A DNA stretch of 12,869 nt from a candidate division WOR-3 bacterium (GTDB lineage: Bacteria; Hydrothermota; Tepidihabitantia; Tepidihabitantales; Tepidihabitantaceae), in contig JBDRUH010000046.1 of the NCBI GenBank assembly GCA_039801225.1, positions 1-12,869 of the forward strand, in the 5' to 3' direction. How positions within the stretch are numbered: the first letter of the stretch is position 1; each line of letters begins with the position of its first letter. Positions 1 to 11,024 of the stretch are shown piece after piece. The position numbers and the translations under genes were made by a program. The notes below the pieces were generated by a model. It worked only from the letters and a program-made list of their open reading frames with translations, was not told where the DNA came from and did no database searches.

Positions 1-147
1 TGTCTGTCTGTGTGAACCTAAGAATAAATATCGGAGGGAAGTGGATAAGGTCAAAACCTCAACAATCACCATCGTTGCAAGTATCAAAAAACAGCCTTTT
101 GTCAAGCAAAATTTCCCAAAAACCTAAACCAAAAGCAAACCTCTGCC

Positions 148-320
148 CCGAGCCCGCAGAAAGAGATTCCTCCACTTCGGTCGGAATGACGGAGCGAGAG
201 ACGCGGTCGGAATGACGGAACAAGGGGCTCGCAATGACTTTTCTCTCGGTGTCATTCCGAGCCCGTCAGGGCGAAGGAATCTCTAACAATGAGATTGCTT
301 TGCCCTCGGAATGACGGAGC
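148..320. repeat. Cluster of GTCATTCC/GGAATGAC palindromic repeats (CGTC-type REP/BIME-like)
   Basis: CGGTCGGAATGACGGA is repeated exactly at 178-193 and 204-219, with a variant CTCGCAATGAC at 228-238. GTCATTCCGAG (251-261) is the exact inverse of CTCGGAATGAC (305-315). GAGATTCC (163-170) is the inverse of GGAATCTC (276-283). CCGAGCCCG occurs at 148-156 and 257-265. Confidence 0.85.
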
Positions 321-336
321 CGGGGGGCAAAACAGG

Positions 337-397
337 GAAGTCAAAAGTCAAATCTCAAATCGTTTTGACTTTTGCAATTTGCATTTTGCCTTTTGAA
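337..397. repeat. Heptamer-periodic inverted-repeat element, copy 1
   Basis: Left arm gaagtca-aaagtca-aatctca, then right arm ttttgac-ttttgca-atttgca-ttttgcc-ttttgaa. CAAAAGTCAAA (342-352) pairs with TTTGACTTTTG (364-374). Confidence 0.8.
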
Positions 398-520
398 TTG
401 AATACAGTGGAGTTATACATACACAAAATTCTGATGGCTAAAATTGAGTTAAGTGTCGTAATTAAATAACTTAATTTGAAGACGGGTTTGCCTGGGGGGC
501 TGTCCACTCCAGCACTAGGG

Positions 521-784
521 TGGTAAAACCCCTTCCAAGTTCGGTTTTGGGTTAGATTCTAAGTTTTATGGTAAAATCGGATTTAAATTCAAAGGGAAAA
601 TCAAATGGAGCAATGTTTATAAAAGGTAGTCTAAATAGTTTCATAGGAGTGGCTTTTCATTTAATCCTAAGTTCAGAACTAAAAAGATGGCTAAAAAGCG
701 GTGGCAGATTTAATTTAAGAGGAAAGGTAAAAAGATAGGTTCTTTCTGATTTAAAAACCTAATGAGGTTTGATTTTAGAGAGGA
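521..784. repeat. Degenerate 12-bp-period array, 22 units, core TARRW
   Basis: Cut into 12-mers from 521, positions 4-6 read TAA in 12 of 22 units and TAG in 2 more. Position 8 is A/T in 21 of 22. No ORF of 60 aa or more covers it in the supplied track. Confidence 0.75.
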
Positions 785-789
785 ATGTT

Positions 790-1266
790 TTATATTTCTT
801 GAGTTTGTTCCTGAACGAACCGAACCAAAACCCGGGCAGCGTCAGCCGCAGTAGGTGCGCTGAGCATTGCTTCCCGAACCGCGGGTAATCGCAAAACCCG
901 GGCAAGGGCAGCGAGAACCTGAAGATAGGTGCCGTAAAGTGAAGGGGGGGAAACCAGGGCAACAATCAGGTTTACCGGCAGTTCGTCTCGGGCTTGCCAT
1001 TTTAGACCAGGGTTGAGCCGAACCACCACCACCACTATGCGGTCAATCGCGCTCGTCGCCGCATGGGGCAGGGCAACACCATGCCCAACACCGGTTGAGC
1101 ACAACTCCTCCCTTTTTTTGAAACCTTCAAGGAGGATATCCTGGTCGGTGGTGATGCCGAACTCCCGCAGCCGGTTGACAATCAACTTAAAAAGTTGCTC
1201 CTGATTGGCAACCGCCCCGGCATCAAAAGCCAACTCGGGAATGACAATCTCCTGTAAGTTAATCAT
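790..1266 (-). CDS. PTS sugar transporter subunit IIA domain protein (fructose/mannitol/nitrogen PtsN-like class)
   Basis: 158 aa with the signature REELCSTGVGHGVALPHA, including the phosphorylatable His. The start overlaps the upstream stop (ATGA). Confidence 0.9.
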   Translation of the reverse strand: MINLQEIVIPELAFDAGAVANQEQLFKLIVNRLREFGITTDQDILLEGFKKREELCSTGVGHGVALPHAATSAIDRIVVVVVRLNPGLKWQARDELPVNLIVALVSPPSLYGTYLQVLAALARVLRLPAVREAMLSAPTAADAARVLVRFVQEQTQEI

Positions 1267-2294
1267 AATCTTTTAAAGAAATCCAATATCGTATTGATGA
1301 TGAACTCCTGCTCGGCATCTGTCAAGTTATGCCGGATTGGCAGGCAGAGAATCTCCTGGCTCGCCCGTTCCGCCTCTTCGGCTCTGGGCTGTTGACTGCC
1401 AGCGGTCGTTGGTTGGGGGTAATATATCATCGTTTCAATCCCTTTACTGGCGAGGAAGGAACGCAGGGCATCCCGGTGCCGGGTGAGGAGGGCAAACTGA
1501 TGAAAGTTGGGCAGGGAGCCAGGGGCGCTCTGGACAATTTTCACCAAGGGGCTCAGCGCCGAACGGTATCTCTCCGCGAGTTGCCGGCGTCTTGCCAGCC
1601 AAAAGTCTAACTGCCGGAGTTTCACCCGTAAAAATGCCGCCTGAAACTCATCCAGCCGGGCAGAGGTTTCACAATTGATTGGCGTATCCCGGGCAAAAAC
1701 TGCGCCGCCATTACCCAAGGCGCCAAGGTTCTTGGTCGGATAGAAACTGAAGGTGCTGATTGCACCAAAACCGCCCAGTTTCCTTCCCCGATATTCCGAA
1801 CCAATCGCCTGTGCCGCATCCTCAATCAAAATCAGATTTTGCTTTTGGCACAGGTTGATGAACCGGTCAATGTTGGCACAGTTGCCAAAAAGGTGCACGA
1901 GGAGAACCGCCTTAGTTTTTGCGGTGAGAAGCGACTGGCAGCTCTCAAAAGAAAGGCAGAGGGTGTCCGGGTCAATGTCACTTAGGACCGGTTGGGCACC
2001 GGTGCGCAAAATGGCGGTGATGGTGCCGGGAAAGGTGAAAGATGGGGTGATTACCTCATCGCCCGGACCGATGCCCAGCGCCTTCATACCGAAATATAGC
2101 GCATCAGTTCCACTCTTGACACAAACCAAAGGTCCAAAACCCAAATAGTCGCTCAATTCTCTTTCCAACTCCTTGATTTCCTGCCCGAGAACAAACCGCC
2201 CGGAGCCAAGGATGCGCTCAAAAGCCTGCCGGAACTCCTCAAGAAACGCCCGATTTTCTCCTCTGACATCATAGAAAGAAACCGGCATTGCCAT
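1263..2294 (-). CDS. DegT/DnrJ/EryC1/StrS-family PLP-dependent aminotransferase
   Basis: Motifs SGTDAL, GPGDEVITPSFTF, VHLFG, IEDAAQAIG, FSFYPTKNLG (PLP Lys) and RLDEFQAA. The start may be the ATG at 2294 or at 2288. Confidence 0.93.
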   Translation of the reverse strand: MAMPVSFYDVRGENRAFLEEFRQAFERILGSGRFVLGQEIKELERELSDYLGFGPLVCVKSGTDALYFGMKALGIGPGDEVITPSFTFPGTITAILRTGAQPVLSDIDPDTLCLSFESCQSLLTAKTKAVLLVHLFGNCANIDRFINLCQKQNLILIEDAAQAIGSEYRGRKLGGFGAISTFSFYPTKNLGALGNGGAVFARDTPINCETSARLDEFQAAFLRVKLRQLDFWLARRRQLAERYRSALSPLVKIVQSAPGSLPNFHQFALLTRHRDALRSFLASKGIETMIYYPQPTTAGSQQPRAEEAERASQEILCLPIRHNLTDAEQEFIINTILDFFKRL

Positions 2295-2407: not shown

Positions 2408-4438
2408 GTGAACGGGCGTTTTCGGCTAAAGGCGCCTTTTAAGCCCACCGGTGACCAGCCCGAGGCGATTGAGCGGCTGGTGGAGTTTTTGGCGTCCGGG
2501 GCAAAGTTTTCCACCCTTTTAGGGGTAACCGGTTCCGGCAAGACTTTTGTGATGGCTAATGTCATCGCCCGGCTCAACCGACCAACAATCATCATCTCCC
2601 ATAACAAAACCTTGGCGGCGCAACTCTATGGCGAATTCAAGCAGTTCTTCCCGGAGAATGCGGTGGAGTATTTCATCTCCTATTACGACTATTACCAGCC
2701 CGAGGCTTATGTGCCGGAGCACGACCTTTATATTGAGAAGGATGCCTCAATCAATGAGGAGATTGAGCGGTTGCGCCTGCGTGCCACCTCCAGCCTGATT
2801 GAGCGTCGGGATGTAATTGTTGTTGCCTCGGTCTCCTGTATCTATAACTTGGGCGAACCTTGGGAGTTTAAGGAGTCACTCTTTCCAATAGAACTCAATA
2901 AGGAACTGGACCGGGATGGGCTCTTGGACCAACTGGTGAAACTGCAATATACCCGCAATGACCTGGAATTGAGGCGTTCAACATTTCGGGTGCGGGGTGA
3001 TGTGGTAGAAATCCATCCCTCCCATCGTGATTACGGTGTCCGGGTGGAGTTTGACGCCGAGCGGGTGGCAAGGGTGAGTGTTTTTGACATCCTTACCGGT
3101 GACCTGATTGAGCGCCGCGAGCGGGTGGTGGTTTATCCGGCAAAACACTTTATCACCGGTGAAGAGCGGATTAAACGGGCGCTAGAGTCAATAGAAGAAG
3201 AACTGGTGCAACGGGTGGCAGAACTGGAGGCCCAGGGCAAACATCTTGAGGCGCAACGGCTGAAGACCAGAACCAGGTTTGATTTAGAGATGATTCAGGA
3301 GTTTGGCTACTGTCCGGGAATTGAGAACTACTCCCGCCACTTCCTGGGCAAGGCGCCCGGTGAAAGACCTTACTGCCTTTTGGATTACTTTCCTGCCGAC
3401 TATCTGATGTTCATTGACGAGTCCCATGTTACCATACCCCAGATTCAGGGGATGTTCAATGGTGACCGTTCCCGAAAACAGGTCCTGGTTGATTACGGAT
3501 TTCGGCTTCCCTCCTGCCTTGATAATCGCCCCTTGCGATTTGAGGAGTTTGCAGCGCTGATCAATCAGGTTGTTTTTACCTCGGCAACACCAGGCGACTA
3601 TGAGTTATTCCAGAGCCAGGGGCGGGTGGCGGAGTTGATTGTCCGTCCGACCGGTCTGGTTGACCCAAAGATGACAATCAAGCCGACCCAAAATCAGGTT
3701 GACGACCTGATAAACGAGATTCGCCAGCGGGTAGAGCGAAAAGAGCGGGTGCTGGTAACCACTCTGACCAAAAGGATGGCTGAGGACCTGGCTGAGTATC
3801 TAACCGAGATGGGCATAAAGGTGCGGTATCTTCATTCCGAGATTGAGCCCATTGACCGGGTGGAGATTCTGCGCGGTTTACGGCTGGGTGAGTTTGATGT
3901 CTTGGTGGGCATTAACCTTTTGCGCGAGGGGCTGGATTTGCCCGAGGTTTCGCTGGTCGCGGTCCTGGATGCGGATAAGGAGGGGTTTCTGCGCGACGCC
4001 CGGTCCTTGATTCAGACCGCAGGTAGAGCGGCACGAAATGTCCGGGGTGAGGTGATTCTCTATGCCGACAATATTACCCGTTCCATCCGCAATGCCTTAA
4101 AGGAGACCGAGCGTCGGCGGCAGAAGCAGATTGACTACAATGAGCGGCACGGAATTGTCCCGCGCTCAATTGAGAAAACCACCGAACAGGTTCTGGAGAC
4201 CACGGCGGTGGCCGATGCCCGGCGCGATGAGGAGGAGGTTGATGAGGAGTGGCTGAGCGCAGAAAGTGAAGACCGGCTCGGAATGCTTGCCCGCCTGCAA
4301 CAGGAGATGGCACGGGCGGCGCAGAACTTAGAGTTTGAACGGGCGGCAAAGATTCGGGACAAAATCCAGGAACTGAGACAGAAGATTGATGATGAGGAGT
4401 GGAAAAAGTCACGGCGCAAGCGGCTGAAAGGTAGCTAG
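2408..4438 (+). CDS. uvrB: Excinuclease ABC subunit B
   Basis: 676 aa. Motifs PTGDQP, Walker [29 protein letters not shown] beta-hairpin, [29 protein letters not shown], and a C-terminal UVR motif [11 protein letters not shown]. Confidence 0.99.
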
Positions 4439-10963: not shown

Positions 10964-11024
10964 TATGCAAAAGTCAAATCGCAAATCTCTTGGGTTCTTC
11001 TTTTTGACTTTTGACTTCTGCATA
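10964..11024. repeat. Heptamer-periodic inverted-repeat element, copy 3
   Basis: TATGCAAAAGTCAAA (10964-10978) and TTTGACTTCTGCATA (11010-11024) form a 15-bp stem. Units are tgcaaaa-gtcaaat-cgcaaat and ttttgac-ttttgac-ttctgca. Confidence 0.8.

Follow-up and report, generated by a model that had tools for sequence, protein, structure and literature searches.

Why should a stretch of intergenic DNA whose units resemble one another so little keep a strict 12-nt phase over 264 bases? The question is raised by positions 521 to 784 of the 12,869-nt stretch of DNA analyzed here (the window), which is the entire contig C46 of a 1.50-Mb, 72-contig, 48% G+C genome of a candidate division WOR-3 bacterium (genome G000), with no DNA to its left. 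An initial annotation, made from the letters of the window, described an array of phased dodecamers at this site. In the analysis presented here, window positions 403 to 790 are a copy of a lineage-specific, dispersed, noncoding intergenic repeat, which is made up of a head followed by a cryptic minisatellite with 22 units of 12 nt. Dispersed intergenic repeats with a leader and a minisatellite are a kind of element that has already been described. The unusual feature of the present one is that the strict 12-nt register is conserved across diverged copies and across arrays of unrelated sequence.

The 264 bases of the array divide into 22 consecutive 12-mers exactly as they were first listed, and the five hand counts given with them are exact: T stands at unit position 4 in 17/22 units and A at position 5 in 18/22, a purine is found at positions 6 and 7 in 20/22 each, and A or T at position 8 in 21/22. 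Summed over its columns, the array has 101.3 bits of information at period 12, compared with 24.8 ± 6.2 bits in 2,000 dinucleotide-preserving shuffles, none of which reaches the observed value (z = 12.4). This is the sharp peak that the initial annotation had expected from such a comparison, and no signal was obtained at periods 10, 11, and 13 in the same shuffles (z = -0.3, -0.9, and -1.6, respectively). Periods 6 (z = 10.6) and 4 (z = 7.4) are harmonics of 12, and period 3 is not significant (z = 1.8, reached by 115 of the 2,000 shuffles). The other seven unit positions, which were described as much more variable, are not free, as position 1 is A or T in 18/22 units and position 2 is T in 12/22. 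The units of the window copy are on average 39% identical to one another, with CAA, GAA, GAG, and TAG as variants at the TAA position. Tandem Repeats Finder reports a 12-mer of 2.1 copies at window positions 585 to 609 and no more of the array, which is thus indeed hidden from standard repeat finders. The gap of 5 bp between the array end (784) and the stop codon of the neighboring EIIA gene (790 to 792) is also as first described. A genome-wide 12-bp periodicity of AA/TT was not found in this genome.

The array is not a singular element. In a BLAST comparison of window positions 406 to 790 with the genome, 27 dispersed copies with head and array were found, counting that of the window, the other 26 being 64 to 88% identical to the window copy. 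The copies are intergenic and are spread over 22 contigs; open reading frames (ORFs) of at least 90 amino acids overlap 5/27 copies only, and the same frames carry stops in the other copies. Each copy begins with a conserved head of ~120 nt and continues with 22 degenerate 12-mers, and some copies share a short tail. The genome-wide scan for other phased arrays proposed in the initial annotation (192-nt windows, n = 124,158, mean statistic of 31.2, standard deviation of 8.7) yielded 50 loci with the same signature, i.e., a strong period-12 and a weak period-3 signal. These comprise 26 loci of the window family, 10 of a second family (family B), 1 singleton (on contig C55), and 13 unassigned loci, mostly of ordinary G+C content. 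Five copies of the window family are cut by contig ends (C5, C22, C31, C62, and C64), and a contig of the related genome G047 also ends inside a head. Such repeats evidently break assemblies, so that the copy numbers given here are lower bounds, and the family illustrates how this occurs in metagenome assemblies.

The register was compared among 21 of the 27 copies (alignment A1). The mean pairwise identity is 87.7% over the 118 columns of the head and 67.9% over the 264 columns of the body, with column entropies of 0.30 and 0.79, respectively. The body of these copies contains four 12-nt deletions (one in C47, one in C4b, and two in C28) and a 1-nt deletion near the 3' end (C58), and a diverged copy outside the alignment lacks 24 nt of the body; apart from the 1-nt deletion, body indels are 12 or 24 nt long and never 3, 6, or 9 nt. 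The better-conserved head has 8 one-nt indels, five of them in its G-run. At the indel-to-substitution ratio of the head, roughly 18 to 47 small indels would be expected in the body, which is a rough estimate and not a computed test. The body is 264 nt long in 19/27 copies, 252 nt in 2, 240 nt in 2, 263 nt in 2, and 251 nt in 1, and the remaining one is cut by a contig end; accordingly, 19 copies have 22 units and 4 have 21 or 20. Although the units differ within a copy, each unit position keeps its own identity across copies, and the between-copy entropy is lower at core positions 4 to 8 (0.70) than in the linkers (0.84; permutation P = 0.011). The expectation that indels would come in multiples of 12 was thus borne out on paralogous copies, and the view that the array does not look like a simply decaying tandem repeat is supported by a register that is kept at 68% body identity with almost no small indels. 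A register that is constrained while the sequence is not is the pattern expected of a spacing-dependent, cooperative binder.

The array was correctly regarded as noncoding. The column entropies at the three codon offsets among copies are 0.82, 0.79, and 0.76, without 3-periodicity, and no frame is open in most copies. In the window copy, stop codons number 16, 4, and 4 in the three plus-strand frames and 4, 13, and 3 in those of the minus strand. Two frames poor in stops, +f3 and -f3, are open in 3/27 and 5/27 copies, respectively, and the TAA frame contains 9 to 18 stops of mixed kinds. The pattern expected of a 4-residue protein-coding repeat or its pseudogene, an open frame together with 3-periodic substitution, was not found. 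The element is also unfolded: thermodynamic folding gives z = -0.9 against shuffles on both strands, and the consensus computed from the copies by RNAalifold (-8.7 kcal/mol over 391 columns) has 14 pairs, all in the head, 0 of which covary. No Rfam family matched the array, other copies, or the heads in relatives (none at E ≤ 0.1 in 10 loci, and none in the array at E ≤ 1); with neither covariation nor an Rfam match, the element was not assigned to a structured noncoding RNA family. An intrinsic terminator after the body is absent in 21/24 copies, and a weak one is present in 3/24. The analysis therefore shows a family that is noncoding and unfolded and in which the 12-nt register is preserved between diverged copies.

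The same period recurs in arrays whose sequences are unrelated. When nine arrays were compared with shuffles, period 12 was the top period in seven, with z values of 12.6 for the window array, 13.9 and 15.2 for two family B arrays, 15.9 for the C55 array, 8.1 for an array on C36, and 9.8 and 6.2 for two arrays of the related genome G046. The C45 array has a stronger signal at period 6 (z = 10.0) than at period 12 (z = 8.3), and the period-12 signal of the C6 array is weak (z = 3.3); periods 11 and 13 gave no signal in any of the nine. The compositions differ widely, from the A-rich TAARW of the window family to T(A/T)AYY in family B, a G-rich array with TGA or TAA per 12 nt on C55, and GT-rich arrays in G046. 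No long ORF runs across the period-12 arrays, although they contain up to 95 codons in a row without a stop. Between families, the 12-mer profiles correlate weakly (0.3 to 0.5), and a unifying core of T-N-A every 12 nt, which fits the window family, family B, and C55, was dropped, as it fails in the C45 and G046 arrays. The singleton at C55 7331 to 7594 has 54% GC and 22 dodecamers, 15 of which carry TGA or TAA at a fixed phase; G-rich, Shine-Dalgarno-like runs lie between its units, and a GGGGGG-loop-CCCCC hairpin is found at one end.

Family B has 8 core copies, in which a conserved module, consisting of a perfect 18-bp palindrome, ~70 AT-rich bases, and a C-rich block, is followed by a ~230-nt period-12 body; six more loci share the module with different bodies. 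The palindrome TTCTACCTATAGGTAGAA occurs at 13 places in the genome (e.g., C10 29816 to 29833) and is invariant in all family B modules, including the six with differing bodies. A T-run follows it on one strand, giving the look of an intrinsic terminator, and the palindrome may be an operator for a dimeric regulator. Six of the 8 core copies are 359 nt long, and in the copy on C20 the register is restored by a +1 and a -1 indel that lie 32 nt from each other. The window family (family A) and family B share a common plan of palindrome, AT-rich stretch, GC block, and array, which is an architectural resemblance: their heads are not significantly similar (144/500 and 18/500 shuffles reach the score in the two orientations), so that family B was oriented relative to family A by the architecture alone. 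In that orientation, the body strand after the head is G-rich in family A and C-rich in family B.

A BLAST search with the element gave 0 matches in 40 relatives. A sequence-only covariance model built from alignment A1 was run on 44 genomes of the family, with up to 32 candidates scored per genome. Among the candidates scored, the head was found in 3 of the 43 other genomes, namely, two congeneric genomes, G046 (at least 26 matches) and G047 (at least 30 matches), and G005, with one weak match (E = 0.004); an array of the window type was found in none. At 20 of the 26 G046 loci, which were examined individually, the head is ~140 nt long and well conserved and ends in a GGGGG-loop-CCCCC hairpin and a box such as GTGATTTTGGTC, and a period-12 array follows it at 2/20 loci. 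The 12-mers that end the head before these two arrays are in register with them: GCGGTTTTGGTC matches the array consensus at 5/9 specified columns (locus L045) and GTGGTTTTGGTA at 7/11 (locus L052), according to hand counts. In the window family, likewise, the head-terminal box TGGTAAAACCCC is nearly invariant among copies and is in register as unit 1. From this unit-like box in register, we infer that the arrays arise by tandem duplication of the terminal box, and the array was probably a tandem 12-mer repeat at first. The genome of the window also contains two heads of the G046 type, with a clear GC hairpin (C42 ~2889 to 2992 and C6 15140 to 15529); one has no array, and that on C6 has the weakly periodic body mentioned above.

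At one orthologous site, G046 contains a head, a period-12 array of ~300 nt, a perfect TTGACA-16-TATAAT promoter, and a gene for a putative Mur-ligase-like protein, whereas in G047 the head is followed after ~20 nt by the same promoter and the gene, without the array, which leaves 296 nt of G046 unpartnered. The two proteins are 86% identical. The G047 contig ends inside the head at this site, and the comparison therefore covers the array side. As the array is present in the one genome and absent in the other, it is an optional and labile module placed exactly between the head end and the downstream DNA. Upstream of smpB, a head is found in G046 and G047 and not in G000, G011, G020, and G045; the DNA upstream of smpB is unalignable in the genomes without the head, and no clean empty site or target duplication could be read there. 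In wider collections, the exact head 22-mer had no match among genome or metagenome contigs, from which records of its own genome were possibly excluded. A degenerate head pattern matched 50 loci in the genome contig collection, nearly all of them single chance matches in unrelated organisms, with four in one metagenome-assembled genome. A gapped head pattern matched 6 loci among the metagenome contigs, i.e., 3 duplicates of G047 loci, 2 chance matches in coding DNA, and 1 fragment, and no array was found at these 6 loci.

The position of the repeat relative to genes was also considered. In G046, a co-directional open frame starts 30 to 260 nt after the head at 14/20 loci; the products are diverse, with N-termini that by eye resemble those of SmpB, GyrA, and ribosomal protein L9 (putative names). 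A sigma-70 match of at least 10/12 lies between the head and the start codon at 9 of these 14 loci, which indicates that the head lies upstream of promoters and is not the main promoter. In G000, the body-side gene points away from the element in 15/21 copies, and a sigma-70 match of at least 10/12 lies between the body and the gene in 9 of the 15. The body-side genes of family B point away in 8/12, and an 11/12 to 12/12 promoter match lies 100 to 166 nt beyond the array in 4/8 core copies. Genes of this lineage very often have near-consensus sigma-70 promoters (TTGACA or TTGACT, 16 to 17 nt, and TATAAT; raw matches), which would be unexpected if the organism used Bacteroidetes-type promoters, and a conserved smpB promoter, for example, is found in six genomes. 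The tails of some copies were also inspected by eye for a sigma-54 promoter, an idea that was dropped because only one copy has both a fitting spacing and the GC dinucleotide. No recurrent neighbor gene was noticed among the flanking ORFs, for which positions and lengths were listed without a comparison among the ORFs themselves.

The reading that we prefer, to which we assign a probability of about 0.4, is that the units form a docking lattice on duplex DNA for a putative spacing-dependent, cooperative binder. The array would have grown when the head-terminal 12-nt box was duplicated in tandem, as an optional module beside the same head, and selection would keep its register because each unit, at intervals of 12 bp along the duplex, serves as a phased docking site. 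Such a lattice would be disrupted by an indel of 1 bp and just shortened by one of 12 bp. The same protein may recognize the head-terminal box as well. The head and array tend to lie upstream of strong sigma-70-type promoters, which the lattice might modulate or insulate. Duplex DNA is favored over RNA as the binding platform by the same period across arrays of differing strand composition, by the lack of RNA structure and of a terminator, and by the apparent seeding of arrays from the head box. Among the possibilities raised in the initial annotation, a lattice for a cooperative binder is thus the best reading of the register constraint, with the binder itself putative, as would be a transcript or an effect of DNA wrapping; nothing speaks for a mini repeat-spacer array. 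A core of 5 nt with a linker of 7 nt is unlike a clustered regularly interspaced short palindromic repeat (CRISPR) array, in which repeats of ~23 nt or more alternate with unique spacers of similar length, and no Rfam CRISPR repeat was found in the array; one subthreshold match lies elsewhere in the window (1258 to 1283).

Several observations weigh against the docking lattice. It is deduced from a single line of evidence, the indel pattern, and the 12-nt deletions could also arise by slippage between TAAAA cores. Selection could also have acted on a small number of master copies that propagate, and not on every copy once inserted, which would account for the scarcity of small indels as well. 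The difference in conservation between core and linkers is small (P = 0.036 when all 12 phases are tested), a +4 insertion (C1) and a -1 without compensation (C3) are tolerated in family B, and the array is dispensable at the orthologous site described above. The distance from the array to the promoter varies from 3 to about 350 nt, which speaks against a fixed regulatory geometry. The 15/21 orientation of body-side genes is not significant against the ~0.565 expected from intergenic classes (rough binomial P of about 0.12), and the sigma-70 match counts for G046, G000, and family B are raw, without a shuffle baseline. In addition, a step of 12 bp is no helical repeat, and we know of no bacterial chromosomal protein with such a step.

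A bolder form of this reading, which we regard as unlikely, is that the arrays are chromosomal tracks on which a protein nucleates at the head-end box and polymerizes in 12-bp steps, off the helical repeat, winding around the DNA, so that ~40 filaments of ~260 bp would insulate or tune adjacent promoters. The only protein-DNA lattice with a 12-bp step that we can cite is that of TubR on tubC, the centromere of a type III plasmid partition system, in which seven 12-bp repeats are bound by TubR (bioRxiv 10.1101/2022.04.29.490116). The two systems have in common that direct DNA repeats follow one another at a step of 12 bp; on tubC, TubR, a small DNA-binding protein, builds a continuous protein-DNA filament along them. 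On the other hand, tubC consists of 7 well-conserved repeats on a plasmid, beside tubR and tubZ, compared with 22 degenerate units at ~27 chromosomal intergenic sites in this study, where no linked gene was noticed among the flanking ORFs. With units that are degenerate and flanks that are ordinary chromosomal genes, the array was not classified as an iteron or centromere array of the tubC/TubR or parC/ParR kind. If true, the tracks would correspond on the chromosome to the centromere lattices of plasmids, TubR-tubC for example, and selection for a lattice would explain why the period is exactly 12 in sequence-unrelated arrays of two genomes. The 264-bp body and a phase-scrambled control would be a concrete bait for such a protein; if no binder exists, the array is an example of a minisatellite that is invisible to repeat finders and yet in phase.

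The strongest alternative, although we consider it somewhat improbable, is that the family is a selfish or neutral mosaic repeat resembling MITEs (miniature inverted-repeat transposable elements) with an internal minisatellite, in which the period is a fossil of tandem duplication and the register derives from intact masters and 12-nt slippage, not from selection at each locus. Such a repeat would be multicopy and intergenic, with many copies at contig ends, and patchy in distribution, and its array could be present or absent at an orthologous site, all of which was observed; the orientation to genes, which is not significantly biased in this genome, also agrees with it. Dispersed intergenic repeats with internal tandem arrays are, to our knowledge, common in the FCB (Fibrobacteres-Chlorobi-Bacteroidetes) group, the wider group of the Bacteroidetes, to which the host of the BrickBuilt element belongs, and we know of no established role for them. 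BrickBuilt sets a precedent for the same architecture: it is a MITE of Porphyromonas gingivalis with a leader, a 23-nt minisatellite, and a tail, which is present as 19 intergenic elements (Klein et al. 2015, PMC4596501) and parts of which carry promoter elements. It comes close to the repeat in the window, for which the initial annotation had found no named element that fits, and the literature on 12-bp or 12-nt periodicity and on prokaryotic minisatellite-in-MITE elements gave nothing closer.

Both elements are dispersed, intergenic, and multicopy (19 and 27 copies), both have a conserved leader followed by a spacer-free, head-to-tail array of a short unit, and the units of both mix conserved and nonconserved positions. 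The unit is 23 nt in BrickBuilt and 12 nt here. The BrickBuilt units are nearly identical (0 to 11% mismatches) and number 1 to 22.8 per element, in contrast to the 39% identity and the 22 units in 19/27 copies found in this study, and indels amount to 0 to 6% within an element, compared with their near absence here. BrickBuilt has small inverted-repeat ends and a tail; in the present family, a scan of 3 copies (seed of 7, minimum of 9 nt) revealed no terminal inverted repeats, and some copies have a short tail. No sequence similarity links the two elements. The absence of terminal inverted repeats of at least 9 nt in those 3 copies also speaks against a MITE-like origin, and no link to a transposase turned up, though no systematic search for one was made. 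Furthermore, the copies are old (32% body divergence), with almost no small indels, compared with 8 in the better-conserved head; the exact period of 12 is common to arrays of unrelated sequence; and family B contains a compensated +1/-1 pair.

A second alternative, which appears quite unlikely, is that the head acts as a promoter for an unstructured RNA of ~270 nt copied from the body; the 22 A-rich motifs of this RNA would serve as scaffold or sponge to an RNA-binding protein, each subunit of which would cover 12 or 6 nt. The head contains the pair TTGAGT and TAACTT at a spacing of 17 nt, followed by a GC hairpin where a 5' stabilizing hairpin would sit, and the G046 head is co-directional with the downstream gene at 14/20 loci. 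The predicted lack of structure in the body would suit a single-stranded binding platform, and the core is strand-asymmetric, as its purine counts at positions 6 and 7 indicate. However, the promoter match is weak (7/12) and lies below the scan threshold, the genes after the heads have near-consensus promoters of their own (9/14 in G046 and 9/15 in G000), and 21/24 copies have no terminator. The strand composition of the other arrays is very different (C-rich in family B and GT-rich in G046), which makes a shared RNA motif unlikely. Three sequencing runs considered for RNA gave sparse pieces of low depth, with nothing usable over window positions 403 to 790, and favor neither side. Protein-sponge RNAs such as CsrB and RsmZ are a few hundred nucleotides long and present many copies of a short motif, GGA in hairpin loops, at irregular spacing. 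The element in the window would differ from them in its TAARW core, its strict 12-nt spacing, and its lack of hairpins, and its transcript is putative.

A decayed or recoded 4-residue coding repeat, in a frame with few stops or with TAA as a sense codon, is close to refuted: the period is a multiple of 3, there are frames with few stops, and CAA, GAA, GAG, and TAG replace TAA in some units, but the codon periodicity and a widely open frame are missing, period 3 is not significant, indels of 3, 6, or 9 nt do not occur, and the flanking genes use the standard code.

Repetitive extragenic palindromic (REP) sequences, bacterial interspersed mosaic elements (BIMEs), and BOX-type mosaic repeats are lineage-specific, dispersed, noncoding intergenic modules composed of submodules, some of which bind host proteins. 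REP and BIME units are palindromic hairpins, in contrast to the body in the window, which has no palindromic units or predicted structure; with the folding result given above on both strands and no consensus pairs in the body, the repeat was not placed among them.

The features of the window copy and its immediate surroundings are compiled in Table 1.

Table 1. Features of the repeat copy in the window and of the adjoining DNA
Feature	Position	Strand	Evidence and remarks
Heptamer-rich module (AAGTCAA x2.1, TTTTGCA x4.3)	338..402	+	Tandem Repeats Finder, blastn, alignment; adjoins the element upstream
Conserved head	403..520	+	21-copy alignment A1
Palindrome box, family consensus GTGTAT-N6-ATACAC	407..424	+	Alignments
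Weak sigma-70-like pair, TTGAGT - 17 nt - TAACTT	444..472	+	Read from the sequence; below the promoter-scan threshold; promoter activity putative
Invariant inverted repeat, GTTAAGT/ACTTAAT	448-454/469-475	+	RNAalifold; overlaps the sigma-70-like pair
G-run and small GC hairpin (GGGG CTGT CCAC)	494..507	+	Alignments; clear GGGGG-loop-CCCCC hairpin in relatives
Head-terminal box = array unit 1 (TGGTAAAACCCC)	521..532	+	Columns G117-A126 invariant in A1; in phase with the array
Body, 22 degenerate 12-nt units, core T-A-A-R-W at unit positions 4-8	521..784	+	
Promoter-like match, TTGATT - 16 nt - TATATT	769..796	+	Distal body end; faces the 3' end of the convergent EIIA gene
Phosphotransferase system (PTS) EIIA_2 family gene	790..1266	-	Pfam PF00359, E = 1.3e-23; convergent with the element and outside it

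The palindrome box is degenerate in the window copy (GTGGAGTTATACATACAC) and was also seen as a palindrome in two other copies and in the heads of G046. It is followed by an AT-rich stretch of the head, in which the sigma-70-like pair and the inverted repeat are located; 6 of the 7 pairs of the latter are invariant and 0 covary. The promoter-like match at the distal end of the body is not above chance, with 1 site in the window copy compared with 0.9 ± 1.0 in shuffles. The genes of the window that flank the element are ordinary chromosomal genes, including those for UvrB, UDG, and ZnuABC, and use the standard code.

The heptamer-rich module upstream of the head is a different dispersed repeat, which precedes the head in 3 aligned copies only (C46, C12, and C33). 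It recurs at window positions 10968 to 11023 and on at least 10 other contigs with 70 to 98% identity by blastn, and it holds an 11-nt perfect inverted repeat (CAAAAGTCAAA/TTTGACTTTTG). Farther upstream, a GC-rich, REP-like motif (CGGAATGACGGAG, with GTCATTCCGAGC as its complement) is present several times at window positions 1 to 340, and many other copies of the family are preceded by these motifs as well. Another heptamer repeat, a microsatellite (GTTTATA x4.4), is located at 2298 to 2328, in the divergent promoter region between a gene for a DegT-family aminotransferase (1263 to 2294, minus strand) and uvrB (2408 to 4438, plus strand).

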